Positions 2,983 to 55,282 of a DNA stretch of 64,000 nt are shown in pieces. The notes beneath the pieces were generated by a model. The model saw nothing but the letters and a program-made list of their open reading frames with translations. It ran no database searches and was not told the DNA's origin. The number at the start of each line of letters is the position of its first letter. The first letter of the stretch is position 1. This DNA is from Octopus vulgaris (taxonomy: Eukaryota). The stretch spans positions 18,104,001 to 18,168,000 of the forward strand of contig OX597840.1 in the NCBI GenBank assembly GCA_951406725.2, read 5' to 3'. The position numbers and the translations under genes are program-made.

Positions 2983-3513
2983 CCAGTACCGCCTGACTGG
3001 CCCCCGTGCCAGTAGCACATAAAAAGCACCCACTACACTCACGGAGTGGTTGGCATTAAGAAGGGCATCCAGCTGTAGAAACTCTGCCAAATCAAGATTG
3101 GAGCCTGGTGCAGCCATCTGGTTTGCCAGCCCTCAGTCAAAATCGTCCAACCCATGCTAGCATGGAAAGCAGACATTAAATGATGATGATGATGATGGTG
3201 ATATATATGTCTATCTATCTCTGTACCTCACACACACACAACTCCACAGCTGGCAAAAATGAGTAGTACCTGTATTTCAAAGGGCCAGTTTTGTCACACT
3301 CTGTGTCACGCAGAATTTCCCTGAGAACTATGTTACGGGTACACGTGCCTGTGGAGTTCTCAGCCACTTGCACATTAATTTCACAAGCAGGCTGTTCCGT
3401 TGATTGGATCATCTGGAATTATCATTGTCCTAACTGACAGAATGCCATGCCTGTCTGTCTGTCTATCTATCTATCTGTCCATGACGGACGGACGGACGGA
3501 CGTCCGTCCGTCC

Positions 3514-3546
<33 letters not shown>

Positions 3547-3558
3547 TCTACACTTTAT

Positions 3559-5033
3559 TTCAAGACGGGATGCCCCTGGGAGCTCCTCTATGCTGATGAC
3601 CTTGCTCTAATTGCTGAGTCACTAACAGAACTAGAGGAGAAGTTTCAAGTGTGGAAAGAAGGATTAGAATCGAAGGGCCTTAGAGTCAACCTAGCTAAAA
3701 CCAAAGTCCTAATATGTAGGAAGGCAGGCAAACCACAAATCCCTTCAGGTAGATGGCCCTGCTCAATCTGTAGAAAAGGTGTAGGTAGAAACTCTATAAG
3801 ATGTACCCAGTGTCAGCTATGGACACATAAGAGGTGCAGCAATATCAAAGGAAGGCTAACTGGGAGGATAGTTTTCGTATGTGGCAGATGCTCAGGAGCT
3901 ATATATAACACTGAAAATGTGCAGAGAACAACTTCCGCCACATTCCAGGGAAAAACTAGAAGTAGTTGATAGCTTCCGTTACCTAGGTGACCAAATCAGT
4001 AGCGGAGGAGGGTGCACTGAAAGAATAAGAATAGCCTGCGCAAAGTTCAGAGAGCTCCTACCTCTGCTGGTGACAAAGGGCCTCTCACTCAGAGTAAAAG
4101 GCAGACTGTATGATGCATGTGTACGAACAGCCATGCTACATGGCAGTGAAACATGGGCTGTGACTGCTGAGGATATGTGTAAGCTTGCAAGGAATGAAGC
4201 CAGTATGATCCAATGGATGTGTAATGTCAGTGTGCATACTTGACAGAGTGTTAGTGCCCTGAGAGAAAGGTTGGACCTAAGGAGCATCAGATGTGGTGTG
4301 CAAGAGAGATGACTGCGCTGGTATGGCCATGTGGCAAGAATGGATTTGGATAGCTGTGTGAAAAAGTGCCACACCCTAGCAGTTGAGGGAACCTGTGGAA
4401 GAGGTAAACCCAGGAAGACCTGGGATGAGGTGGTGAAGCATGACTTTCAAACATTGGGCCTCACCGAGGCAATGACTAGTGACCGGGACCTCTGGAAATA
4501 TGCTGTACTGCAGAAGACTCAGCAAGTGCAAGTGTGACCATAACCTTGTGGACTATACTAGGGGGTAACCAGTCCACTTATGCATGCCTTTTCTTTATTG
4601 GACACTAAACTCTGCTTGTGAAGACCAGTTGAGGCTAGTGAAATCAAACTCGGTGACTGGCATCCATTGCTACTGGAGCGCTAAGAGTACCATACGAGTG
4701 AGATTGTTGCCAGAGCAACAAACTGGCCTTCGTGCCGGTGGCACATGAAACATTCGAGCGAGGACATCGCCAGTGCTGCTGGACTGGCTCCTGTGCAGGT
4801 GGCACATAAAAAGCACCATTTGGACGTGGTCGTTGCCAGTACTACCAAATTGGCCCTCATGCCGGTGGCACGTAAAAGCACCCACTACACTCTTGGAGTG
4901 GTTGGCGTTAGGAAGGGCATCCAGCTGTAGAAACACTGCCAGATCAGATTGGAGTCTGGTTTGCCAGACCTCAGTCAAATCGTCCAACCCATGCTAGCAT
5001 GGAAAGCGGACGTTAAATAATGATGATGATGAT
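3559..5033 (+). mobile_element. 5'-truncated, more decayed copy of the same RTE LINE
   Basis: LLYADDLAL, FRYLG, LHGSETW and GRGKPRKTW in broken frames; same 3' end and (GAT)n tail. Confidence 0.95.
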
Positions 5034-6730: not shown

Positions 6731-7320
6731 CCATATCCTGCACGACCCAACGTCTCAAAACCCTGAAGGCATAATACAAAGAAACGCTGCATTTAACACC
6801 ATAGTTTGTTATACAATAAGACGAGGTGGTCATGACCGTATTGACTTTCATCATGGATCTACTCAACGAAGGTTCATCTGGGGATCAACAACAACAACAG
6901 TGGAGGCGCAATGGCCCAGTGGTTAGGGCAGCGGACTCGCAGTTGGAGGATCGCGGTTTCGATTCCCAGACCGGGCGTTGTGTGTGTTTATTGAGCGAAA
7001 ACACCTAAAGCCCCACAAGGCTCCAGCAGGGGGTGGGTGGCGACCCCTGTTGTACTCTTTCGCCCCAACTTTCTCTCACTCTTTCTTCCTGTTTTTTGTC
7101 CCCGACTTCCTACGCAACTGCTGAGCCTGGATGCGCATTCATCCATCCGTCAATGCTTTCGGTGACCTGCTTTCTCTTCTGCAGGTCTTACGAATAGCAA
7201 AGGACCATGTATCGGACTTCTCCCATCTTGCGAGCTCTGGGATGAAGACCGTTCGCTCAACAGCAACAGCAACAACAACAACAAAAATGGTTTTAAAAAA
7301 AAAGGAAACTGGTTTCTTAC

Positions 7321-7539
7321 CCATTTGTGTATCCTTGCAGTGACAGAGGAGTTCTGTGGCAGGTTCGTTGCCTTGTTTTGATGCCATGATGAGCCATTTC
7401 ACAGCCTCGGTGCCGTTTTTCTCTTCATTGACCCCAGACTGAGCCAATACCAAGAAATGTTTGCCCACAATAAGTTGGTCCTCTTCTGATCCACCATCTG
7501 CTCTCTTCAAAACCTCTGGATCGAGGGACGACTCCATCT
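7321..7539 (-). CDS. WFS1: Wolframin-like N-terminal (Sel1-like helical) coding exon; rest of gene not located in window
   Basis: Translates EMESSLDPEVLKRADGGSEEDQLIVGKHFLVLAQSGVNEEKNGTEAVKWLIMASKQGNEPATELLCHCKDTQMG, matching my recollection of the wolframin N-terminus (VGKHYL..A....N...AV.WL..A.KQG...A..LL..C). Acceptor ttccag| at 7540, donor G|gtaaga at 7320; 219 bp, phase 1-1. Confidence 0.85.
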
Positions 7540-7547
7540 CTGGAATT

Positions 7548-9902: not shown

Positions 9903-10856
9903 AAAGACAAAACCTGCAAAGCATTTTTTCCAATGCTTCTACGATTCTGCCAGTGCAGCATCAAGAAATGTCACAGATCCAAGAACTATGAAACCTGTGT
10001 AAGAAGGAAGCAACAGAGAAACATACACAAAGAAACATACATGTGGCTGTGTGGTAAGGAGCTTTCTTCCCAACCACATGGCTCTGGGTTCAATCCCAGT
10101 GTGGCACCTTGGGCAAGTCTCTTTCTAGTATAGCCTCAGGATGACCTAAACCTTGTGAATGGATTTGGTTGATGGAAACTGAAAGAAGGCGGCGAGCTGA
10201 CAGAAAGGTTAGCACACTGGGCGAAATGCTTAGCAGTATTTCGTTTGCCGTTACATTCTGAGTTCAAATTCTGCCAAGGTCGACTTTGCCTTTCATCCTT
10301 TCGGGGTCGATAAATTAAGTACCATTTACGCACTGGGGTAGATGTAATCGACTTAATCCATTTGTCTGTCCTTGTTTGTCTCCTCTATGTTTAGCCCCTT
10401 GTGGGTAGTAAAGAAACAGGAAACTGAAAGAAGCCCATCGTGTATGTGTGTGCTTGTGTGTGTGTGTGTGTGTGTGTGCATATGCATGTATGTGTATAAA
10501 TACCAATTTTGAAAAATTAGGCTTCTCGATGCCCGGAAAGGAGAAAGCTAATTTGAAGACTACGGTTCCAAGCCATCACTGAAACTTTAAAAATTTGTTA
10601 AATTTTTCAGAAGTTCATCATTTAAGTCTCTATGTGCCATGTCGAGACATGCAGCCATATGCATGAGAATACATACAAGACATACCAATCTGCACATGCA
10701 CTGATTCCAAATACTGCACATATACACACCTACATGTAAAAGTACCGTTGTTGATGTTGAAATTCCAATGAAAGAACCATAGATCTAGGTTAGAAACCAG
10801 CTCTTTCTCTACTGGCAAGAAATCTTAAAATATAACTGAATAACGACATACATAGA

Positions 10857-11122
10857 CTGTTGTGTCTGGGGAGAGTCATTTTCTTTTTGTGCCTTATTAT
10901 TTAACACACTCACCGGTAAAATTTCCACTTTTTTCTTATTTTTATTTTCATAAAATTTTTGTTGCATCTTGCAACCTTTTCATTAGTCTTGACTATTGAA
11001 AAGGTCACAAGACGCAATGAAAATTTTAGGAAAATAAAAATAAGAAAAAAGTGGAAATTTTACCTGTGAGTGTGTTACATTATAAGGCACAAAAAGAAAA
11101 TGACTCTCCCCAGACACAACAG
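10857..11122. repeat. Near-loopless palindrome (arms about 130 bp)
   Basis: ctgttgtgtctggggagagtcattttc... pairs with ...gaaaatgactctccccagacacaacag; centre near 10990. Confidence 0.85.
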
Positions 11123-11469
11123 AATATGCTTCAACACACGAACTCATATAAAGAATCTTGCAAACCAAATCCAAAAATGAGACATACATAGAGACAAACA
11201 GATAGACTAACAGAAAACAGACACACAGACATATTCAGACAGATATTCAGACAGACAGACATTTGGTAATCAGGTGACAACCTGTTTTTGTTATCAGACC
11301 ATTCACTACAACTGCCCTGGTATTTTGGAAGTCTTCCCACGTGGTGTTTAGTTTTCTATAGAAATGCATAGAAATGTCTATTTTGCATTTATAATTGGTT
11401 GTGTTGCTGTTAGAATTAGTTATAATAGTGTTGATTGTAAATATAATAATGATGATAATAATAATAATA

Positions 11470-12751: not shown

Positions 12752-12855
12752 AATATATATATATTTACTTAAATAATATATATATATTTACTTAAATAAT
12801 ATATATATATATATATATGTATATAAGAGAAGAACCACCATATAAGAGAAGAAGC

Positions 12856-14896
12856 ACCAGCTGCAGGAGAAATACCTAGCCAAAGATAAGGCCCTGTACC
12901 TGGCTTTTGTTGACATGGAGAAAGCCTTCGACAGGGTCCCCCGATCCCTCATATGGTGGTCAATGAGGAAACTAGGAATAGAAGAATGGTTAGTGAGAGC
13001 TGTGCAAGCCATGTACAGGGACGCTGCTAGTAAGGTGAGGGTTGGAAATGAGTACAGTGAAGAATTCCGGGTAGAGGTAGGGGTCCACCAAGGCTCAGTC
13101 CTCAGCCCCCTCCTATTTATCATAGTCCTCCAGGCAATAACGGAGGAATTCAAGACAGGATGCCCCTGGGAGCTCCTCTATGCTGATGACCTTGCTCTAA
13201 TTGCTGAGTCATTATCAGAACTGGAGAAGAAGTTTCAGGTGTGGAAGCATGGTTTAGAATCGAAGGGCCTTAGAGTCAACCTAGCTAAAACCAAAGTCCT
13301 AATAAGTAGGAAGGTAGACAAATCACAAACGCCTTCAGGTAGATGGCCCTGCTCGATCTGTAGAAAAGGTGTAGGTAGAAACTCTATAAGATGCACCAAG
13401 TGTAAGCTATGGACACATAAGAGGTGCAGCAATGTCATAGGAAGGCTAACTAGGAAGATGGTTTTTGTATGTGGCAGATGCTCGGGAGCATTAACCTCTG
13501 AAAATCTGCAGAAAACAACTTCCGTCACTTTCCAGGGGGAAAACTAGAAGTAGTTGATAGCTTCCGTTATCTTGGTGACCAAGTCAGTAGTGGGGGTGGG
13601 TGTGCTGAAAGTGTAACGGCTAGAGTAAGAATAGCCTGGGCAAAGTTTAGGGAGCTCTTACCTCTGTTGGTGACTAAAGGCCTCTCGCTCAGAGTAAAAG
13701 GCAGACTGTATGATGCATGTGTACGAACAGCCATGCTACATGGCAGTGAAACATGGGCCGTGACTGCTGAGGACATGCGTAAGCTCGCGAGAAATGAAGC
13801 TAGTATGCTCCGTTGGATGTGTAATGTCAGTGTTCATAGTCGACAGAGTGTAAGTACCTTGAGAGAAAAGTTGGACCTAAGAGGAATCAGATGTTGTGTG
13901 CAAGAGAGACGATTGCGCTGGTATGGTCATGTGGTGAGAATGGATGAAGATAGGTGTGTGAAAAAGTGCCACACCCTGGCAGTTGAGGGGACCTGTGGAA
14001 GAGGTAGACCCAGGAAAACCTGGGTCGAGGTGGTGAAGCACGACCTTCGAACTCTAGGTCTCACCAAGGAAATGACCAGAGACCGAGACCTATGGAAGTA
14101 TGCTGTGCGTGAGAAGACCCGGCAAGACCAGTGAGAACAATCAAAATCAAATCATATATCAGAAAGCAGGGGTTAAGTGACCCATCCGTTCGTGTCCGCT
14201 GTCAGCCTCGTCTGGCACCCGTGCCGGTGATACGTAAAAGCACCATTCGCTCATGGCCGTTTGCCAGCTCTGCCTGGCCCCATGTCGGTGGCACGTAAAA
14301 GCACCATCCGTTCGTGTTCGTTGCCAGCCTCGCCTGGCCCCGTGCCGGTGACACGTAAAAGCACCGTCCGTTCGTGGCCGTTTGCCAGCTCTGTCTGGCC
14401 CCGTGTCGGTGGCACGTAAAAGCACCATCCGTTCGTGGCCGTTTGCCAGCTCTGTCTGGCCCCGTGTCGGTGGCACGTAAAAGCACCATCCGTCCGTGTC
14501 CGTTGCCAGCCTTGGCTGGCCCCCGTGCCGGTGACACGTAAAAGCACCGTCCGTTCGTGGCCGGTTGCCAGCTCTGTCTGGCCCCGTGTCGGTGGCACGT
14601 AAAAGCACCATCCGTTCGTGTCCGTTGCCAGCATCGCCTGGCCCCGTGCCGGTGACACGTAAAAGCACCATCTGTTCGTGGCCGTTCGCCAGCTCTGTCT
14701 GGCACCTGTGCAGGTGGCACGTAAAAAACACCCACTACACTCGCGGAGTGGTTGGCGTTAGGAAGGGCATCCAGCCGTAGAAACACTGCCAGATCTGACT
14801 GGGCCTGACGAAGCCTTCCAGCTTCACAGACCCCAGTTGACCCGTCTAACCCATGCTAGCATGGAAAGCGGACGCTAAACGATGATGATGTGATGA

Positions 14897-15708: not shown

Positions 15709-16242
15709 TATATGTACATACACACATATAAGTACCCAACACATACACACCTGCAGGACTGGAACTTGATTTTGAACAATGCTTGATTGTTTTCTTAAAC
15801 ATGAGCAAAAACGGATGTGACTTTTCAATCCTGTTAAGGACCTACACTATTTTGCACAGATGTGGTAACGATGGAAGCCTCTTGCAGCAGGCGTTCGGAG
15901 AGTTTACTGCCCGCACTAACAGACGGCTTTATTCCATCTTGGTATTTTTTATTGAGTGGTTTACTTTTTTCAGTTACATGAATCCAATGCATGCAACACA
16001 CAACAGAGGTGGTTAGAGACGTTGAAAATCAAATGATGCCTTTGTATGAAGCTTCTCAAAGAGAGAAATAGCTTGCTCGGGGCCAATCCCACTCTATATA
16101 AAAAAGAAGCATTACTCTACATCAGTGAATAGAGACAAAGTCAAAGCTCATTGGCTAATTGTGACCCCAGAGCCTGTTCTGGCACTGTCTTTCTATATAT
16201 CACTAGCAGAGAGATGCATCACTGCCATCTCCAATGCCAAAA

Positions 16243-16289
16243 CCACCAGATCACATAATTTTGACCTCCTTTGGTCTCATCAGTAATGG
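16243..16289 (-). ncRNA. Degenerate hammerhead motif; inverted partner at 17289-17335
   Basis: Reverse complement: ccatta-CTGATGA-gacc aaagga ggtc-AAAA-ttatgtg-ATC-tggtgg (G12 lost). The partner keeps GAAA but has a mutated CUGA box. Confidence 0.4.
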
Positions 16290-17016
16290 ACGCTTGACTG
16301 CTAGAGTTAGCAGTGACTTATCTCCCCACCAGTGATATATAGAAAGACAGCACCCGAACAGGTTTTGGCACTGGAGATGGTAATATAATAAGTGTGCATT
16401 TTGCATCAAAAGCCAATATGAGAGTTTCTCTCATGGCAACCACTGCAGTATAGTTTGTTCCGATAGAACATCCATGTTTCAAGTGGGGATAAGTATCACT
16501 TATCAGTATTAATACTGTCTCTGTTGCTAATATATATTCTTTACCAAGCTCACTGGCTAATCGTGACACCAGCACCTGTTTAGGCAATATTTTTCTATAT
16601 ATCAAGGCAGCAAGCTGGCAGAAACATTAGCACACCAGGCAAAATGCCTAGCAGTATTTCATCTGGCTTTACGTTCTGAGTTCAAATTCTGCCGAGGTCA
16701 ACCTTACCTTTCATTTTTTCGGGGTCAGTAAATTAAGTACTAGTTGCATACTGGGGTTGATCTAATCGACTGGTGCCCCCTCCCCCAAAATTTTGTACCT
16801 TGTGCCTAGAGTACTCTTTTACTCTTCCACTCTTTTACTTGTTTCAGTCATTTGACTGTGGCCATACTGGAGCACCACCATTAGTCGAGCAAATCGATCC
16901 CAGGACTTATTCTTTGTAAGCCCAGTACTTATTCTATTGGTCTCTTTTGCCGAACCGCTAAGTGACGGGGACGTAAACACACCTGCATCGGTTGTCAAGC
17001 AATGTTGGAGAGACAA

Positions 17017-20000: not shown

Positions 20001-20857
20001 AAAACAGGGAACATAATCAAGAATCCTTGTCCAGTACCAGATCAAACCCAAAATCTAATCAGTTTGTGCCAGTCACAAGGCCAAACAGCCTTGAAAGTCT
20101 CATCTGAATCCATCCAGCGAGGCCTAATGTTCGAAGGCCATGCTTCACCAGGTCTTCCTGGGTCTACCTCTTCCACGGGTTCCCTCAGCCTATGACCAAG
20201 AGTCCACTGCCCAAACCACTGCGCCATTGCACCTCCATAATATATATATATATATATATACCTCTGGATATCTTTGTTGCTCCTATCTTCAGCCTTACAT
20301 GATACTCACAGACCATGGTCTCTGGATGTTTACCCGTCCTCAGTGTGAGATAATCACTGGCTGTTGATGGAAGCTTTCTCCACTCACAAACACTATATAT
20401 TCTTTAAGTAACACACAATCGCTGATCTCATATAGAGAAAAACAACTTGTTTTAAATCTCTCACCAAGAGTTATACAGTAACAGTATCGAATAGTAAAGT
20501 TTATATGCCAACAGAATGTGGCAGTCCTATAAAGGACGATGCTACTGTTGTTTAAGCCCCAGGAAAACATCTTCTCCAGCTGACTATCAACACAGTCTGC
20601 TTTTGTACAGTGTTTGCAAATATTATATGGACACAGACTGTGTATTGACAGCCAGCTGGAAAAGATGTTTTCCTTCTCAAACTATCTGATGTGGCATACC
20701 AGCAGATTTTTTTCTTCCAATGTACCAGGGATCAGTAATATTTCTTAGTAATATTAATTTATACTGGAAATAATAATATACAATGAATATAATAAAAGCT
20801 GACAATTTTTTGTTATCTTATATTTATTTTGTAAACAAATAATATAATATTACATTA

Positions 20858-21270: not shown

Positions 21271-22331
21271 AGCGTTTTATGTTTCTTTCTTTTCTGAAAA
21301 CTCATCACGTACTGGCAGCTGATGGCTCACAGACTGGTACTGGTCCGTGGACCACCACTTTGAGTAACACAGCTTTATAGGACCACCACATTCTTTTGGA
21401 AAATAAACTTTTAATTTAGATCTCACTTTAAAATGGGAAGATCATCTCAAAGAATTAAGTGTGGTCTTGGATGTTTCACATTAAAAGGGTTAAGTGCTTT
21501 GTTAACACAAATGAAAGAAGAAAATGAAAGAATTTATTCAAAAAGTTTTTAGATGGAATGAATTATCCTGAAAGGTTAATTTCCTTCATCCATGATGAGA
21601 GAGAGAGAAATGTTATACATACAGGTATATTACTCTTACTCTTTATTCTTTTACTTGTTTCAGTCATTTGACTGTGGCCATGCTGGAGCACTGCCTTTAG
21701 TCGAGCAGATCGACCCCGGAACTTATTCTTTGTAAGCCTAGTACTTATTCTATTGGTCTCTTATGCCGAACCGCTAAGTTACGGGGATGTAAACACACCA
21801 CCATCGGTTATCAAGCGATGTTGGGGAGAGACAGACAGACAGACACACATATATATACATATATACAATGGGCTTCTTTTAGTTCCCATCTACCAAATCC
21901 ACTCACAAGGCTTTGGTCGGCCCGAGGCTATTGTAGAAGACACTTGCCCAAGGTGCCACGCAGTGGGAATGAACCCAGAACCATGTGGTTGGTAAGCAAG
22001 CTACTTACCACACACCCACTCATGCACCTATGTATGTATGTATGCATGTGTGTGTGTATGTGTGATTGTGTATGTACGTTTGCATGTATATACATATGTA
22101 TATTTGCATATATGTTCATATATATGTATATACATACGTATATGTGTATGTATGTATATCTCAATGTACATTCGCATGTATATGCATACATATGTATGTA
22201 TGCGTGTGTGTGAGTGCATATGTATGCATGCATGTTTGTGTGTGTATGTATGTGTGTGTGTGTATATTTATATATTTGTACATATATATGTCTGTATATA
22301 AATACATATGTGTGAATATAAATATATATAC

Positions 22332-22725: not shown

Positions 22726-24211
22726 ATCTACTTGATATATGTATTTAGGTAAATGTGCATGTGTGTGTGTGTGTGCACGTGTACATATGCCATGGTAAAT
22801 AGAGGTCAGAGTAAGTTGGAGAATGAAATAGCATAATGCCATTTAAAAGTTTCTTTCATTTTATTTGAGAGAGGAAAATTAAGTTGTTAGTCGGACAAGG
22901 TAGGGCTAAGTACTTAAAATAGACGACTAGTATTGAAATGTGAACTACTAAGTGACTACTAAAGCTACTGATAAATTAAATGTTAACGGTGGCTCATAGA
23001 TCTACTTGTAGAAACAAAAAGAAAAAAAATGTGTTTGTTTTGAAAGATTCGTGATGTGAAATCGTGTGTTTAAACAGATATTGTTATGTTTCGGGGATGG
23101 TCATTTTTAAACAGAACAGCCGGAGACACATGGGATGGAGAGTCACAGAAGAGGTCACAGAAGGTGCCGATGAAAGATTTCCAGACAATGACTATAAAAT
23201 GAAGAACAATAATAAACAAGTGAAGAACGATTATATAGCGCCTGTGTTTATTTGGTGAGGAATAAAAATGGAAAACCATCCTGAAATATAACAATACAAG
23301 AAAAAATACACACATTATTGTATTATTGTATCCTTCTCTGTTTACAATTTACAGCTGTGTTTATATTGTCAACATCTAACACAAACACATACACACACGT
23401 CTAAACATACATACATACATACATATATATGTCACACACCTCCACAACACACAACTTACATGGACTTTTTTATGTGGTATGTCACTTGACCTGCTAGAAA
23501 TAACAGCCAAATCTCCCAAAATTCACACACTTCCATTTAAAAAAAGAAGGATAATTCCGATAAAAATTCAGGAATAAAGATGTCAAAATGTCACAAACTT
23601 CAATAAAAAGTTACAACTAACCCATAAAGCTCTGAGATTTGCCCTTACATAGCATGGACTGCTGAGCACATTTTACGAAAATGAGACTACTATACACACA
23701 TAAAAAACAAAAAAATAATTAAAACATCATCTTAGTGTGTAATGGTGTATAAAAGTCATTAATTGAACTGTTAGTCCTCTAGCATTCTGGGGGGTATCGT
23801 TTGAGTGACATTAGACCCCCAACAAACGCCCATAAATTAAATGTATTTATCTGGACCACAATCATGGCCTGTCATGCTTTATGCGTTAATAATGGTTGGC
23901 TTGTTTCATTGTTTTATGAGAGATTTTTAATAAAACCTGAGATGCAAAGTCATTTCGGTGACACTATTCTGCTCTTTTATACTGCAAGTCATGTTACTCT
24001 TTACTCTTTTACTTGTTTCAGTCATTTGACTGTGGCCATGCTGGAGCACCGCCTTTAGTTGAGCAAATCGACCCCAGGACTTATTCTTTGTAAGCCTAGT
24101 ACTTACTCTATCGGTCTCTTTTGCCGAACCGCTAAGTTATGGGGACGTAAACCCACCAGCATCGGTTGTCAAGTGATGTTGGGGGCACAAACACACACAC
24201 ACACAAAATAT

Positions 24212-25013: not shown

Positions 25014-25998
25014 CTAGTAGTATTGCCCGGCGTTGCTCAGGTTTGTTTCAACCCTTTAGAATTGGAATTTTTGAAAAGTAAAAATTTTGCATTATGTAGC
25101 TTGTTATTCTCTTTAAGTGAACATTTTTCTGGTTGAAATAAACCGAAAAATGGCGACACAGCAGTCAAAAAATCAATAAAAATAGGGATTTTCATAGAAA
25201 AAAAGTGCCTTCTTGATGTAAATAATTTTGAGTATTAACATGGTCCGATTTGAATTTTTTCTTCTACAGAATGAAGAGCAAGCCTTCTTCTATCATACTC
25301 TCAATTTTGGTCAACTTGTGCCGCAGGGTCTCAGAGGAAATAGTGTTAGTTGAAGGCTACCAAACCTGCCATACACAGACAACTTCAGCTTTATATATAG
25401 AGAGATATATATGTATACATGGGTGAGAGGGGGTAAGAAAGCATTTGTGTTGGTGACACATAAAAAGCACGCAGTACACTCTGTAAAGTGGTTGGTGTTA
25501 GGAAGGGCATCCAGCTGTAAACACCTTTGACCAAAACGGATGACTGGAGCTTGGTGCAGCTCTCTGGCTGGCCAGCTCTTGTGAAACTGTCCAACCCATG
25601 CCAGCATGGAAAACAGACATTAAATAATGATGATGATAATGATATATATTATGAAAGAAAGTTGTGGTGAAAGAGTACAGTAGGGTTCGTCACCACCGCC
25701 TGCCGGGTCCTCATGGTGCTTTAGGTGTTTTCACTCAATAAACACTCACAATGCCCAGTCTGGGAATTGAAACCACGATCCTATGACCGAGAGTTTGCTG
25801 CCCAAACCACTGCACCATTATACCTCCATAATAAATATAAATATATATAAATACCTCTGGATATCCTTGTTGCTTATTTTGATTATAATCACCCCATTTT
25901 GAATTATATGGATAATACCATACTAAATTCTGGTGCCTTTAACTTAAGTACCATATTCTACTGAATCTAAATTTTACTGAACTTATATATATATATAT

Positions 25999-26104: not shown

Positions 26105-26210
26105 GTAAATTAATATGTTACCATTATTCAATAGCCAAGATAACCAAAGAGATTTCCACTTCAGCACTCAGAGTTTATCTTGGCTATTGAATAATTGTCA
26201 CATATTAATT

Positions 26211-26214
<4 letters not shown>
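26105..26214. repeat. Short fold-back (arms about 40 bp) between (TA)n tracts
   Basis: tgtaaattaatatg...attattcaatagccaagataa pairs with ttatcttggctattgaataat...catattaatttaca. Confidence 0.75.
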
Positions 26215-26247
<33 letters not shown>

Positions 26248-26324
26248 CCTCTTATGCCCAATTTTTCTCTCAATACATAATGCTCTGTCACATATGTACG
26301 TTGATATTACAGATATTACAGAGG

Positions 26325-26615
26325 CCAGATGTGCAATGTCGATGCACATGTGCAACAGAGTGCTAGTGCATTGAGAGAAAAGTTAGGCACAGAAGGAATG
26401 AGATGCACTGGTTTGGTCGTGTGATGTCTATGGATGCAGACAGTTGCATTGCATACAGAAGTGGCAACCATGTAAGTGGAAGGAATTTGTGGAAGAGGGA
26501 AACCCAGGAAAACATGGGGTGAAGTACTGAAGGGTGATATCGAGACAGTGAGCCTTACGAGGGAGATGACAAAGGACCGAGATATGTGGTGCATTGCTGT
26601 ACTGGAGAAGACCTG
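26325..26615 (+). mobile_element. Degraded RTE LINE C-terminal fragment
   Basis: Similar to 13815-14120 (tgtggaagagggaaacccaggaaaacatgg; atgacaaaggaccgagat). Confidence 0.7.
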
Positions 26616-31565: not shown

Positions 31566-33316
31566 TATTCCATTATCTTATTGCAATCCCCTAAATACAA
31601 AGTATCTTAGTAGAATTGTAGGCTCCCGAACAAATCAATGCATTCAGGCCTATCGACAGCAAACCACAGCATACATAGATTGGAAATTAGGGATCTTTAC
31701 ATCTGTCGGTCAAAAGGTAAAGATCCGAAATGAGACCTATGAAGCTCACAGGCAATTGCCCTTAAAACGGTCCTTGCCTAGAGATGCAGTAACCACTGCC
31801 TCCACCATCACAAACCACAGCATTAAGGACGTGTGGCGGAGCAAATGAGTCACTACTTCTTGTCCCTGGACAATTAATTCCACTGGCTTCAAAATATAAG
31901 GTATATATATTCTGGCTGGGTTAATTTTAATAATTACCGTGTTTCAATAGCATAAAAAAGCGCACGTGCCTACAAGACGGGCGTACCCCAATTTCACCAG
32001 CACATTTAGCAAAACGAGTTTTTACCGCATTAAAAAGCATGTGATATTTGAAGAAATCTAGCAGCACATTACAAAAGTACCTTTGCCTTTAGCAGAAAGC
32101 ACTGCTGTTTAATAATGATGTTTAAGTAAATATTATTATAGAGTTAAGCTAGGTCAGAAACCGTTTAGATTAAAATTAGACTATTGTAGTGAACGTCATG
32201 GCTGAAATTAATTTATGGAAGGCTGAACTTTGTATACAGGACCCGGGGTGATGTTTTGAGACTTTCTCTTTTGTTTTTTATCGATGGCTTGTTGCCAACT
32301 TAATGTGGCAGTCCCAGGGAAGAGACTGCATAACTCTGAGAGATTTAGAAATGTAATACTTTTTTTTTTATTGTTTGAAAAATAAAGTGAATTTTATATG
32401 CTATCAAACAGAAATGTCGGTACGAAATTTGTTTTAGAGAGTAAAAAAACAAAGCTCCAAATTTGTTTTTACGAACAAGGACGATTTTTTTCGATCTTAA
32501 CAATTACAGGCATAATAATGCTTGCAGATGAGGCGACGAGCTGGCAGTATCGTTATCCCGCCGGACAAAGTGCTTAACATCCGTCTTTATATTCTGAGTT
32601 CAAATTCCGCTGAGGTCGAGGTACTATGAAATAAGTACCAGTTGAGCAGTGGGGTCGATGTAATCGAGTTACCCCGTCCCCCGTGCACCCCTATTCCCTA
32701 GCCAACGCCATCGAATACGTAAGATTTATATATCGCTGTGGTTAGCAAAGCAACTCATGGTTTTGCTTAATAAGAACGAACACGCCAGAACATTATTCAA
32801 TAGGATCGTCTCTTAATGCACAGATCGATCAACAACAGCTTGTCCTTTTTCATTGTGAAAAAAAATTATGAAATATATCGAACAGCTATAATCGACAAAC
32901 ATTAAAAGAGACACACCTTAGATTCATTAAAATAAAGAAAGAGAGACGATATTCAGCACAGGAAGGGTTGTGTCACACACTATGACCTCAAAAACGTGCG
33001 CGCGGCACTAAGAGTGTTAAGCGAAGTAGAATGCAGTTCGGTTTCACTTCAAAACGTTAGAAGCCGAACAAAGAACCTTCTATGCAGTAATTTTTCCTGC
33101 TAGAAATACCAGCCTGATCGCCCTCAAAACAGTTATGTAGGGATTTGACGGAGATTTAGCTTCTATCCCTAGCATATCTAGTAACCATATACAATTGCTC
33201 TCTTTGGCTTGTTTGTCTTTCGTAAGAAGGTGACAAAAAAAAACATTGTGTAAGTTTAAAACACTTTTGTAATACAAGGGACACGTTTTATCTTTGATAT
33301 CTATCTATCTATCCAT

Positions 33317-33397
<81 letters not shown>

Positions 33398-33705
33398 CCT
33401 ACCTAGTGTGTGTGTGGTACGTTGCAAGTTTTCTTTGTGTTCATAACAGGTTTTCTTTTTCAAGGTATAAACGTTAGGTAGACAGGTGTAAATTCTGTTG
33501 GGAACTACAATAATTTAATATTTCCATGCTAGCATGCGTGTTTGCGTTAACGTGAATTACCTGTCTTCATACACTTCCGTCTGTAAAGTACATGTATTAC
33601 ATATCTACCTATCGAGACACGAGTACGTAATGTATGTGATATATACATCACGTACTCGTATCTAAATAGACAGACATGCAGGTAGACAGAGACAGACAGA
33701 CAGAC

Positions 33706-33934: not shown

Positions 33935-34095
33935 ATATGCTTTATTTAAAAGCGGCAGAAATTTAACAAAAGCTGTTACTCAGAATTTCACGTACCCGTT
34001 CATCGGACAGTCTTGTTTAACAAAACTACCCGACGAACGGGAACGTGAAACTCTGAGTAACAGCTTTTGTTATATTTCTGCTGCTTTTAAATAAA

Positions 34096-34101
<6 letters not shown>
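33935..34101. mobile_element. Fold-back element (arms about 80 bp) between TA tracts
   Basis: ctttatttaaaagcggcagaaat... pairs with ...atttctgctgcttttaaataaag. Confidence 0.8.
33973..34063. ncRNA. Pair of opposed minimal hammerhead-like motifs (33973-34010 minus, 34026-34063 plus), CCGANGA variant
   Basis: Minus: ctgt-CCGATGA-acg ggta cgt-GAAAT-tctga-GTA-acag. Plus: ctac-CCGACGA-acg ggaa cgt-GAAAC-tctga-GTA-acag. Each has a different lesion, but their consensus folds fully. Confidence 0.5.
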
Positions 34102-36165: not shown

Positions 36166-36202
36166 CTTTAGTCGGCGGCGGTACTTGCTCCACGGCTGTC
36201 AT
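36166..36202 (-). CDS. Candidate first coding mini-exon of the wolframin-like gene (MTAVEQVPPPTK+G)
   Basis: Unique CpG-rich sequence. ATG at 36202, donor AAG|gtagat in phase 1, in frame with the phase-1 exon at 7539. No homology support. Confidence 0.25.
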
Positions 36203-38782: not shown

Positions 38783-39020
38783 ATAAAGTTAAGAAAGAGA
38801 GAAACAAATTCAAAAGGTCGACACTCATATTCACTCAAGCCATCCCAAATTGTCGAAACTCTCCACAACGTACACTTAGATGCGCTCTTATGAACTTTTA
38901 CCATGTCTGATATATGTGAGCGCATCTGTGTATGTTGTGGAGAGTTTCGACATTTTGGGATGGATTGAATGAATAAGAATGTCGACCTTTGGAATATGTT
39001 TCTCTCTTTCTTAAGTTTAT
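38783..39020. repeat. Fold-back element (arms about 105 bp) between microsatellites
   Basis: ataaagttaagaaagagagaaac...gatgcgctc pairs with gagcgcatc...gtttctctctttcttaagtttat. Confidence 0.8.
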
Positions 39021-40336: not shown

Positions 40337-40519
40337 AAGATAGGTAGGTAGTGGCTGTGTGGTAAGAAACTTGCTTCTCAGCCTCATGGTTCCCGGTTCA
40401 GTCCCACAGCGTGTCATCTTGGGCAAGTGTCTTCTACTATATCCTCGGGTCGACCAAATCCTGGTGAGTGGACTTGGTAGGTGGAAACTGAAAGAAGCCT
40501 GTTGTATATACATACATAC

Positions 40520-40571
<52 letters not shown>

Positions 40572-40576
40572 CACAC

Positions 40577-41150
40577 AAGTATACAAGCGGTTCGGACGTT
40601 TCCAGGAGGGCCGAAAAAATGTCGATATCGACGAACGTTCTGGGAGACCTGCAACCAGTAGAACTGAGAAAAACATCGCAGATATGCATGTAGCTGTGAG
40701 AGGAAATCGTCGAATCACCATCTGTGAGTTATCAGAGGATGTGCAGATTATTTACGGTTCAGTCCATTATCACTGAAGATTTGGGTATGAGACGCGTGTC
40801 TGCCAAGTTTGTGCCAGAACTGTTTTCAGCTGACCGGAAAGACACTCGGGTTTTAGTTACACAAGATCCCTTTGACTATGTTGAGAACGTTGAAAACTTT
40901 TTGAAAACTTTGCGTAGGCTTCTGAGCAGATATCACCAAGCTTTTGGCAAAATTTGATGCAGAATCTCTGCTCAACTTTCTGTCATGGTCAATGCGATGA
41001 TCGCACGCTACATACCTTCCTTCCAAGCACTGCGGTAAACAGGGGGAGTGAGCTAGATCGTTAAAACTTAGTGCGCATGCATAGCGGTTTCATTCTGCGT
41101 GCTTTAGCTTCGTTACTATGGCAACAGCCCGGATACTTATTGATCAGACC
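40577..41150 (+). mobile_element. Mariner transposase N-terminal relic
   Basis: RFQEGRKNVDIDERSGRPATS...NRRITICELSED, then IITEDLGMRRVSAKFVP (WVPHEL-like motif). Confidence 0.8.
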
Positions 41151-43020: not shown

Positions 43021-43369
43021 TTTCAAACTTGTGTCATTTTCGCTTTTAAAAAAATGAACTTTTGGTCAATATATATGTATGGCTTGCTGGTTAGGCTATT
43101 GCACTCACGATCACTAGCTCGTCGGTTCGATTCCGTTACTGGGCAGCGCGTTGTGTTCTTGAGCAAAATATTTCATTTCACGTTGCTCCAGTCCCCGCTT
43201 ACGATCAGGGGGGATAATTTGACCCGCTGACCTAGCCAGTGGGGTGACGTCATTTGAAGGCTAAAGCAATGCAGAATCGCATTGGGACCAGCGATGTGTA
43301 ACATCTGATAGCCTGGTTGGTCACGTGATATATATGTAATCAAAATAAGCAACAGGATATCAAAAAGTG

Positions 43370-43457
43370 ATGCAGTACGACCGTTTCAAGCGATTCCATT
43401 TAATTGAACAGTGCAATCATTACAGCAATTTAAAAGCAGGGCTATCCTCAGCTGCAT
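43370..43457 (-). ncRNA. Type I hammerhead-like motif with long stem II (left arm)
   Basis: Reverse complement: atgcag-CTGAGGA-tagc...gctt-GAAAC-ggtc-GTA-ctgcat. Perfect stem I, self-complementary ACGGUCGU, U-U at the stem II base. Confidence 0.65.
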
Positions 43458-43677
43458 AAATAAATAGAATTTTAATCGGTTGGACACATTAATATAATTT
43501 TTCTCAAAAACTTTAACAGACCAAGAAAATGGAAGAAATCCATGTTGTCGCTATTATAGCTAAGTCTGTTTTTAGTTACAATAGCGAAAATATCGATTTC
43601 TTCCATCCTTTTGCTCTGTTAAAGTATTTGAGAAAAATTATATTAATGTGTCATACCGATTAAAATTCTATTTATTT

Positions 43678-43765
43678 GTGCAGCTGATGATAGCACTGCA
43701 TTTAAATTGATATAATGATTGTATTGTTCAGTTAAATGGAGTCGCTTGAAACAGTCGTACTGAAT
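43678..43765 (+). ncRNA. Type I hammerhead-like motif with long stem II (right arm)
   Basis: gtgcag-CTGATGA-tagc...gctt-GAAAC-agtc-GTA-ctgaat. Confidence 0.55.
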
Positions 43766-43794
43766 CACTTCTTGATATCCTGTTCCTTATTTTG

Positions 43795-43847
<53 letters not shown>

Positions 43848-43926: not shown

Positions 43927-44529
43927 ATAACTTATAAAACAAGGGCAAAAGAAAAAATTCTAATGCCAAATATGCCGAAAATAGACAAATTGTCAATAAC
44001 CATTATAATTTATCACTATTAACTTGCGTCTCGAAACAAGCCGACAGAAATTTTTGAAAAATTCCGTTAATACCGTATTGGTCCCAATTTTAGAGTTAAT
44101 TCATAAGAATTTTCTCCTCCTCAGCGATAAATACGTAAGACATAAATGAAATACTTACTCATACCCACGGAAAAAGCAAGCACTAAGTCCTGAGCAGACC
44201 TAAGTACCCCAAATATATCCAAAATAGAAAATCATCAGCACATCTATTTTGGATATATTTCGGGTCCTTAGGTCTGCTCAGACTTAGTGCTTGCTTTTTC
44301 CGTGGGTATGAGTAAGTATTTCATTTATGTCTTACGTATTTATCGCTGAGGAGGAGAAAATTCTTATGAATTAACTCTGAAATTGGGACCAATATAGTAA
44401 TAACGGAATTTTTAGAAATTTCTATCGGCTTGTTTCGAGACGCATGTTAATAGTGATAAATTATAATGGTTATTGACAATTTGTCTATTTTCGGCATTAG
44501 AATTTTTTCTTTTGCCTTTGTTTTATAAG

Positions 44530-44533
<4 letters not shown>
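43927..44533. mobile_element. Fold-back element (arms about 300 bp) between two (TA)n tracts
   Basis: ataacttataaaacaagggcaaaag... pairs with ...cttttgcctttgttttataagttat; short loop near 44229-44242; about 80 bp unpaired extension from 43846. Confidence 0.85.
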
Positions 44534-44616
<83 letters not shown>

Positions 44617-45494
44617 GCGAGTCGCTAAATATTTAGGTCGCTGATAAAAACGTGAACACTTTAATAATTGGACTGAATCATTAATCAAGTAACCATGAAA
44701 TACTTCTGTGCGAATAACTTCACGTTCAAGGTTTTATTCAGACACGTGAGTATCTACTGTTCAATAAAGATTTTTGGGAAGAAGAAAGGGTTTGAACAAC
44801 TTGTCATGTTCCATGATAACTTTAAGTAAATAGAAGTAAATGAAGCTACGAGATCTACTTTTCACGGGCACTAGACGTAGAATACCATGGCGAGCTACTG
44901 GTAGGAAATTATACATCGAATTCATGTGCCAGGCTCTCTCGTATTCGCGGTGGACCTTGTCACGTCTCGTAGAAGCAGTTAGAGAAGAGAGGTTGTTCGA
45001 ATGGGTGTTCACGCTTAAATAGGCGATGTGCCACTAGTGACCTCCTGCGTGTTGTTTAGGAGTTATGCCTCTGGTAAATTAGCGAAGGGGTAGTTAACCA
45101 TGTTCACCTTGAATCTTCTGGAATATTCTAGATTGTTCGATAGAGGAGAGACAACCGTCGTTGACTCCCAATGAATATTTTGTTAGCTTACGAATCTGTT
45201 TCGGTTAACGTTCTCCACACACACGCGACGATGTACTGGAAAGTTCCTGACTTGGCGTAAAAGAAAATACAGGAAGAAGAATTAATAATAAATCTCTGAA
45301 CGAGGTATAAACAGTAACTATACGAAAATGTGAGGTATATTTGCCATCTCAATATGGCTATCCACTAAGAGTGGGTGTTACTGTAGCTTGTATCCCCAGG
45401 AGAACATCGTCTCTAGCTGGCTATAGGTACACTTTCTGTGCTCTTATGGTATTTGCAAAGGGAGGTCATCCCTCCCTCGTCAACCTAAGTGATA

Positions 45495-45539
45495 CGCACG
45501 GACTGCAGTTTCTGGGTATTGACCCGTCATCAGCGTACG
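45495..45539 (-). ncRNA. Minimal type I hammerhead ribozyme, left arm of fold-back element
   Basis: Reverse complement: cgtacg-CTGATGA-cgggt caat accca-GAAAC-tgca-GTC-cgtgcg. 6-bp stem I with one GU, stem II gggt/accc with a C-A mismatch at its base, palindromic stem III, GUC site. Confidence 0.8.
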
Positions 45540-45576
45540 ACAATTGGGACTCCTTTCATCGAAAACCGGTGATTGT

Positions 45577-45621
45577 CGTACTCTGATGACGGGTCAATAC
45601 CTAGAAACTGCAGTCCGTGCA
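45577..45621 (+). ncRNA. Minimal type I hammerhead ribozyme, right arm of fold-back element
   Basis: cgtact-CTGATGA-cgggt caat accta-GAAAC-tgca-GTC-cgtgca; palindromic stem III ACTGCAGT; some mismatches in stems I and II. Confidence 0.7.
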
Positions 45622-46055
45622 TATCACTTAGGTTGGACGAGGGACGGATGACATCCCTTTGCAAATACTGATAGGGCACAGAAAGTGTGCCTATAGCCAG
45701 CTGGAGGAGATGTTCTCTTGGGGCTAAAAAGCTACAGTAACACCCACCCTTAGTGGTTAGCCATATTGAGATGGCAGATATACCTCACATTGAAGAAGAA
45801 TTAGTTATCATTTTATTCGACATATTCCCCTCTCAGATTCACACATTCATTGGAGCGGTTCTTCAGTTTTTCTAAGCCCTGTAAAACAACTGGGAAGGTT
45901 GAGCCTCCAACCAGGCCTTTTGTGACACCCTTTTCAGTACTCCTTCGTATACATACACACATGCATGTATGTCTTTAAATACACATATATTTGTAATACT
46001 GTACAAATACCCACTTTATACCTAATATCTCGCTTATGAAAACTAACTGAACCAG

Positions 46056-54632: not shown

Positions 54633-54845
54633 ATACGAGGGGTCCTGGAAAGTTCCTGGCTTTAGGGGTATCATGAAAGACCTGGTTGGGGGCCCAACCT
54701 TCCAAGTTCTTTAACAGGGCTTAGAATAACTGAAGGACCACTGCAATAAGTGTTTGAATCTGAGAGGGGAATATGTTCAATAAAACCATAACTGATTCTC
54801 CTTTATTTTCTTTTACCCAAAGCCAGGAACTTTTTAGCTCCCCAC
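54633..54845. mobile_element. Mariner-derived MITE (uninterrupted relative of the copy at about 45230-45930)
   Basis: tacgaggggtcctggaaagttcctggcttt ... aaagccaggaacttt; interior is the reverse complement of 45804-45930. Confidence 0.7.
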
Positions 54846-55282
54846 CCCTCAGCATGTCTAGGAAGGTTCAGACACAAAGTATGCTAGTCATTGTAGTGTA
54901 TGTGAAAGGAGAAAAACTTTTTTCTTTTATGATGATAGGGTGTTCAACACACTCAATAGCGAAGAAGATTCTGGAACACAGGCGTTTCAACATTTTGTGC
55001 CTTGTCAGAAGCACCTGGACCTTTGAGCCTAAACCAACCTACTGGCTTTGTTTATACCAGTGGTTCTCAACCATTTTTTTGCCTATGGGCCCCTTTGATC
55101 CTTATTTTGCTCTACTGGATCCCCATAACTTGTCATGTTTAAAAAGATCCCATTATATTTTTATAATAAAATCTCATTAGGTATTGTATAAAAAAAATTG
55201 TTTAAAGATTTTTTTTAATATTCTCAACATTAAATCTGTTAACTCTAACATAACTGTAGTTAACTTTTTAATACTCCCTACA

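Follow-up and report, generated by a model that had tools for sequence, protein, structure and literature searches.

A 2017 paper is said to have described dimeric hammerheads in Penelope-like elements (PLEs). PLEs are known to leave an inverted, 5′-truncated copy together with a tail of 30–40 bp at one end (PMC8557442), and a one-sided tail is also described in PMC3846280 and PMC11167929. In Adineta, PLE insertions show inverted pLTRs, target-site duplications (TSDs) of 8, 9 and 10 bp, a 31-bp tail and palindromes at the junctions (PMC3846280). At AT-rich DNA, a PLE protein was shown to cleave both strands and to extend them, and its reverse transcription begins at two internal RNA sites, which set the limits of the tail (PMC11167929). 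In addition, dual hammerheads on opposite strands, 100–700 bp apart, occur in PLEs; the consensus of these ribozymes is CUGANGAH-G..C-GAAAN-palindrome-NUH, and one of the 56 motifs in the supplement reads AGAAA (PMC4209133). PLEs have also been proposed as the movers of animal retrozymes on the basis of common ribozymes, distribution and phylogeny (PMC7229834; bioRxiv 10.64898/2026.07.22.740005).

The window (the whole 64,000-nucleotide stretch of Octopus vulgaris DNA that was analyzed) contains a 507-nt insert at 45285–45791, which is bounded by 12-bp direct repeats and interrupts a MITE. The features of this locus and of its relatives in the window are as follows.

45226–45272, no strand: left portion of the split MITE, comprising a TIR-like left end and the 5′ body; left edge set by eye and by alignment of the empty site
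45273–45284, plus: left copy of the TSD, 12 bp exact
45285–45326, minus: one-sided 42-nt tail, which prolongs the left arm at its 3′ end and lacks a counterpart in the right arm; unpaired in the fold, with a conserved 3′ end at 45289
45327–45544, minus: left arm, 218 nt, a 5′-truncated pLTR-like copy whose sense strand is minus, from alignment to the right arm
45495–45539, minus: type I hammerhead, minus copy; the sole zero-mismatch descriptor match in the window
45545–45571, plus: 27-nt spacer, most of which belongs to the right (tail-less) arm, which reaches further in the 5′ direction, from gapless sense alignment to what lies upstream of the hammerhead at 20.3 kb
45572–45791, plus: right arm, 220 nt, the inverted copy whose sense strand is plus; it ends exactly where the tail starts and abuts the TSD
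45577–45621, plus: type I hammerhead, plus copy, with U.C at the closing pair of helix I and a nominal cut after 45615
45792–45803, plus: right copy of the TSD, from reading of the sequence
45804–45947, no strand: right part of the interrupted MITE, whose right TIR carries an internal deletion
54634–54853, no strand: uninterrupted relative of the MITE having the target site once, from alignment to the flanks of the insert
20288–20674, minus: diverged (about 70%) relative of the insert family, from sequence match, fold and descriptor
21359–21412, plus: another piece of a family arm end, matching 20496–20534 at 87% over 39 nt

The 12-mer GAAGAAGAATTA was found at 45273–45284 and 45792–45803 and nowhere else in the window on either strand. 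The probability of an exact 12-mer at both junctions by chance was about 1e-5 in a base-frequency estimate over 49 registers, which ignores the repetitiveness of GAA. The left flank (45240–45274) showed 88.6% identity with 54833–54799 (minus strand), and the right flank showed 85.2% identity with the MITE at 54.6 kb (minus strand) over 45793–45920 and an 84% match to 54803–54666 over 45793–45930. The rebuilt empty site aligned with the 54.6-kb MITE and was 4 nt longer than it, right beside the junction. The earlier note had considered the case that the MITE already contains both copies of the 12-mer; the uninterrupted MITE has a single, degenerate copy. Because the 12-mer is unique to the two junctions and the flanks are those of a MITE that has the site once, the insert is real and arrived in one event, as the earlier note had proposed for an insert that splits a MITE with a 12-bp duplication. 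The MITE relative, which the note had placed at 54633–54845, was recovered, but its right TIR extends to about 54853. TIRs were seen in the MITE and, by eye, a TA at one end of each copy; on these features it is a putative mariner (Tc1/mariner) MITE. The TSD is AT-rich and is the sole TSD known for the family, with none seen by eye at the relative at 20–21 kb. It may be 16–17 bp with two mismatches, because the homology with the 20-kb relative ends at 45289. The split MITE fixes both junctions of the insert, which makes the locus useful, and the insert is most likely a clean example of a known form of PLE insertion.

The insert folds as one long hairpin (−389 kcal/mol, z −37) and consists, in this order, of the unpaired 42-nt tail, the 218-nt arm, the 27-nt spacer and the inverted 220-nt arm. 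The arms are identical at 198 of 218 aligned positions, with 2 gap columns. When the hammerhead strand is taken as sense, the arms are in head-to-head orientation, their 3′ ends lying on the flank side, and a 6-bp palindrome (45541–45546) lies at the head-to-head junction. The left arm extends 42 nt beyond the right arm, and this tail (38 nt when counted to the conserved end) is on one side only. The tail is kept in the relative at 20453–20492, where none of 2,000 shuffles scored as high. The three arm copies differ by frame-shifting indels and stops; no ORF was found in the insert, and no ORF start is common to the three arm copies. A coding reading of the arm plus tail was rejected, since no frame is shared among the copies, and the absence of a shared frame could reflect decay or a non-coding parent. 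An A-to-G excess between the arms (6 versus 1) was too small to be taken as editing. The hairpins immediately upstream of the tail were not above shuffles (z −1.4). The tail-end 8-mer occurs 7 times in the window compared with 2.7 expected; as further members of the family its other five sites were rejected, four lacking any context of the family and the one at 32.3 kb being weak (p = 0.10, E = 0.05). A short stretch at 32292–32347 resembles the pre-tail hairpin and the tail end of the family and was not significant.

The insert shares with PLEs an inverted 5′-truncated head-to-head copy, the one-sided tail of 42 nt and a type I hammerhead in a pLTR-like arm, and its architecture belongs to an already described class; the earlier note had named no element class. 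A pLTR and tail that overlap the first codons of an ORF, also a PLE feature, are absent from the three arm copies. No PLE domain was detected in the 9 of 104 long frames of the window that were scanned with Pfam, which gave wolframin and a reverse transcriptase fragment with a PHD-like finger. The 113-aa frame of the 20-kb relative gave no Pfam or protein match, and a protein search with the tail frame of a fold-back at 10.9 kb gave only two unrelated repeat proteins. Because no PLE protein could be linked to the family or to any of the fold-backs, PLE membership rests on structure, and on this ground the insert is most likely an ORF-less PLE retro-insertion.

The nearest described systems are the EN+ PLEs with inverted pLTRs, namely Pen2/Pen2a of Adineta (PMC3846280) and the scheme in the legend of Fig. 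2 of PMC8557442, which have in common with the insert a head-to-head truncated copy, a junction palindrome and an AT-rich target. In the description of Pen2/Pen2a the tail is 31 bp and the TSD 8–10 bp, compared with 42 and 12 in the octopus (PMC3846280). In contrast to these elements, the insert has neither an ORF nor a direct pLTR pair between its arms, no ORF start was seen in its arm or tail, and no autonomous partner was identified. The pLTRs described for Poseidon and Adineta have a shared ORF start, whereas the arm copies of the insert do not. Poseidon PAc of Anolis likewise has two 3′ ends a tail apart and downstream of a type I hammerhead, with both target strands apparently used (PMC11167929). 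The arm and tail of PAc, however, are the first codons of its ORF and lie nearer to the ribozyme, whereas the frames of the insert vary among copies; in the insert, 174–216 nt separate the cut site from the two 3′ ends, more than the 85–125 nt that we estimated from the PAc figures (PMC11167929). The PLE hammerheads, with opposite-strand pairs in Schistosoma and a Cotesia bracovirus PLE, share CUGANGAH, the G..C of helix II, a palindromic helix III and the opposite-strand pair with the insert (PMC4209133). The hammerhead of the insert fits their consensus except for one extra A before GAAA, as in one of the 56 listed motifs, and differs from them in its 6-bp helix I and possible distal stem. 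Unlike min-HHR, which lacks helix III, it has this helix.

The following course would account for these features. A PLE GIY-YIG endonuclease/reverse transcriptase supplied from elsewhere would have cut the AT-rich site in the MITE with a stagger of about 12 nt, and both 3′ ends would then have primed reverse transcription of the element RNA. At the left end, a distal start site would have given the arm plus the 42-nt tail, and at the right end a proximal start site the arm without the tail. Both cDNAs would have stopped 30–70 nt beyond the hammerhead cut site and become linked in head-to-head orientation at a short palindrome; the TSD would result from fill-in. The enzyme, the two-ended priming and the join are the parts of this course that we infer.

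Within the same class of element, the join could instead have arisen from one cDNA or antisense RNA that folded back and was copied into a hairpin, with the tail on one side later trimmed by the endonuclease. The palindromes at the junction here (45541–45546) and at the 20.6-kb relative are in keeping with such a fold-back, as are the interpretation of junction palindromes as self-priming in PMC3846280 and the attribution of the tail to endonuclease resolution in PMC8557442. The spacer, however, is in sense with the tail-less arm, and a plain snap-back of the tail-bearing strand gives the opposite arrangement and so needs trimming or a second template. Because the spacer belongs to the tail-less arm, two templates are favored and the fold-back join is considered unlikely, with the argument from spacer orientation depending on one relative whose alignment is weak on its own (p = 0.12). 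A more distant explanation is an element moving by cut-and-paste, either a fold-back DNA transposon or a large MITE, whose TIRs had picked up a hammerhead. Long inverted repeats, a short spacer and a TSD would suit it, and palindromic DNA elements occur in other animals (PMC5625713). A cut-and-paste element would nevertheless have to place its inverted repeats flush with both TSD copies, and the left arm lies 42 nt from its copy, the intervening tail being family sequence. In general, cut-and-paste requires both TIRs at the junctions, and the TSDs of common DNA superfamilies are shorter than 12 bp, which also counts against a DNA transposon. The fold-back point differs as well in the 20-kb relative, which folds back 45 nt past the cut site, whereas the 45.3-kb insert does so upstream of the ribozyme. 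Because the tail separates one TSD copy from the inverted repeat and PLEs leave such tails, cut-and-paste is disfavored and the DNA transposon is highly improbable. The view of the earlier note that a long TSD favors target-primed reverse transcription is supported as to the mechanism, for which the one-sided tail is a stronger argument than the TSD length. Least probable of all is a single insertion that later underwent inverted duplication by repair, or a fold-back artefact of the assembly. The window is rich in fold-backs and microsatellites, which is in its favor, but the 20 of 218 arm positions that differ exclude a read chimera; moreover, the inverted arm stops at the boundary of the tail, directly next to an intact TSD, and MITE sequence was neither lost nor inverted.

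A further reading refines the PLE explanation and is not exclusive of it: the parent would be a non-coding tandem unit of about 354 nt, a non-LTR retrozyme, moved in trans by PLE enzymes. Non-LTR retrozymes are defined by head-to-tail repeats of 150–450 bp, each bearing a type I hammerhead, and by self-cleaved monomers and circular RNAs, whereas the insert is known from its DNA; the two have in common a non-coding nature, a type I hammerhead, a long TSD, possibly the unit of about 354 nt and a mollusc host (PMC7229834; bioRxiv 10.64898/2026.07.22.740005). The passages describing retrozymes in these sources mention neither a tail nor an inverted junction. The 20-kb relative has its hammerhead core at 20343, where GAGA replaces GAAA, and is made up of a linker of about 95 nt, the tail, an arm (20494–20620) and an inverted arm piece (20620–20674) joined at an 8-bp palindrome. 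At 20.3–20.6 kb the tail thus runs to the hammerhead of a second copy, whose cut site is 142 nt further on with no ORF between, and 142 plus 212 gives about 354 nt, the repeat size of mussel retrozymes (350–390 bp, PMC7229834). The 6-bp helix I with its possible distal stem recalls canonical metazoan type I ribozymes, and the 20-kb unit folded as a circle better than shuffles (z −3.3, 40 shuffles; the circle included bases of the flanking repeat). On the other hand, there is no tandem array in the window, where one partial run of tail, linker and ribozyme (20.3–20.6 kb) was seen, the 20-kb layout is explained equally well by a PLE copy nested in the pLTR of another, and the additional base that follows CUGAUGA is a trait of the PLE type. 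We regard the retrozyme parent as possible but less likely than not, beside the PLE retro-insertion that is our preferred reading. A profile search of the window found no convincing family copies beyond 20288–20674 and 21359–21412. The latter fragment seems to stop near the tail boundary and may be the far end of the inverted arm at 20.6 kb. An exact circular permutation of the 20-kb relative was tried and rejected: the doubled unit scored 179 compared with 126, yet the bridging segment was at shuffle level (p = 0.68 and 0.98), and 20260–20281 is a flanking repeat that recurs at 25853. Both occurrences (20260–20281 and 25853–25874) follow a SINE-like head and a TA-rich stretch, and the repeat resembles the arm end of the 43339 fold-back.

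The minus hammerhead has a 6-bp helix I, a 4-bp helix II flanked by an extra C and A, and a palindromic helix III; apart from these two bases its core and helices I–III are intact, and a possible distal stem on helix I has lost its 5′ strand at the junction. The plus hammerhead retains four of the six helix I pairs. Zero-mismatch matches to the descriptor averaged 0.05 in 20 shuffles, compared with the single match given by the minus copy. The cores and the ACUGCAGU palindrome agree with the earlier description, as do the GUC triplets, the length of 45 nt and the cuts (after 45615 on the plus strand and between 45501 and 45500 on the minus strand). It had called these the most canonical minimal ribozymes in the window; neither is fully canonical: in both, an extra C follows the CUGAUGA box and an extra A precedes GAAA. 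Rfam gave no match at the gathering score across the whole window, and at E ≤ 10 in three sub-regions no hammerhead family was found, only miRNA and snoRNA noise driven by the hairpin. The twin hammerheads do exist as two copies, but because the arms are copies of each other, they are one motif seen twice in the two arms of one inverted repeat. Three ribozyme copies were compared, two of them the arms of the insert, so that the set amounts to a single comparison. In it, 40 of 42 cells pair and both partners have changed in 4 of 14 pairs, a level reached by 6 of 500 shuffles. Helix I accounts for two of these double-sided changes and the palindrome (ACUGCAGU to ACCAUGGU) for the other two. In the parent family the hammerhead is a selected trait, whose palindromic helix III would serve dimer folding.

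The pairing of every ribozyme helix was predicted to be 0.0 in all four read-through contexts folded, and that of helix I was at most 0.01 even in the two folded transcripts that start within the spacer. On either strand, the antisense copy would be transcribed ahead of its sense ribozyme, and the ribozymes of this copy are therefore probably silent. The folds suggest that the hammerheads in this insert are probably kept off by the hairpin: a read-through RNA would bury either ribozyme in a duplex of about 220 bp, and its likely product would be a dsRNA hairpin. Two intact ribozymes able to work as a pair are not supported, given their opposite strands, the broken helix I of the plus copy and the unformed helices of the folds. 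The palindrome is predicted to form an 8-bp homoduplex of −11.1 kcal/mol; dimer folding is thus plausible for the parent family, and not between these two copies in cis.

The window contains 11 local fold-backs of at least 79 nt, about 4.5% of its length in summed spans, and since the fold-back form is common here, the present copy is less surprising. With one core mismatch allowed, the descriptor gave 5 matches in the window compared with a mean of 0.25 in 20 shuffles. Four of the five lie inside fold-backs (45533, 44124, 34006 and 16283) and the fifth in the 20-kb family relative; a hammerhead match is found within or beside 5 of the 11 fold-backs. Anchored direct repeats were searched for at 10 fold-backs: two non-microsatellite 12-mers with a one-sided extension were obtained (45.3 and 10.9 kb), 3 of 150 random anchors also reaching 12, and the remaining fold-backs gave TA-rich matches (three), 8–10-bp matches (two) or none (three).

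The fold-back at 10845–11192 (arms 10857–11122) is extended by 58 nt on one side, shows a perfect direct repeat of 12 bp and lacks a hammerhead. A frame of 26 codons starts with the ATG at 11100 and runs through its arm end and extension, as in a PLE pLTR plus tail, and the arm end and extension have a relative at 23034–23107. A 600-nt fold-back of another family, at 43930–44530 and flanked by (TA)n, has hammerheads at 44124 (minus) and 44346 (plus); its arms are complementary in their losses, helix I being kept in one and GAAA in the other. The small fold-back at 33940–34096 has decayed twin hammerheads; after it come (TA)n and a direct repeat of 8 bp that does not exceed chance. At 16167–16368, a single hammerhead (core 16283, minus strand) lies in the spacer, which belongs to the left arm. 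The other fold-backs (43339–43796, 38784–39019, 26105–26213, 26245–26399 and 33600–33678) lie mostly by microsatellites, and 43339–43796 has CUGANGA boxes in both arms and no clear GAAA.

In Octopus, an exceptionally large share of loci can form long, near-perfect dsRNA, and the level of hyper-editing is very high (PMC5625713). Octopus was omitted from the repeat analysis of that study, in which the Penelope of a lizard was heavily edited. Self-contained PLE fold-backs are a candidate source of the long dsRNA of octopus. That the family is a retrozyme of about 354 nt with a PLE tail and an inverted junction, and that PLE-type self-silencing fold-backs are a main source of the long dsRNA behind A-to-I hyper-editing in octopus, is a combined proposal which we consider rather doubtful. 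If true, a retrozyme with a PLE tail would be direct structural evidence that PLE enzymes mobilize animal retrozymes by two-ended internal priming, and the signature of tail and inversion would be mechanistic evidence on which enzymes move them. A literature search, with most subscription papers and Repbase beyond its reach, returned no report of octopus hammerhead fold-backs or of PLE-tailed retrozymes.

The insert is located about 9 kb upstream of the start codon of wolframin, whose first coding exon (36167–36202) and second coding exon (7319–7540), both on the minus strand, are identical to the protein of Octopus sinensis. The 20.3-kb hammerhead, with GAGA for GAAA, is in a wolframin intron and on the pre-mRNA strand. 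A phage search gave no match. A frame at 40492–40776, for which Pfam gave no match, presumably resembles the N-terminal part of a mariner transposase. A frameshifted non-LTR retrotransposon reverse transcriptase with a PHD-like finger is present at 12846–14134 and 3379–4243; Pfam assigned RVT_1 and PHD to 12846–13544, and these domains are not PLE-like. Tandem arrays were observed at 14182–14706, with a period of about 61 nt, and at 1725–2279, with a period of 25 nt.
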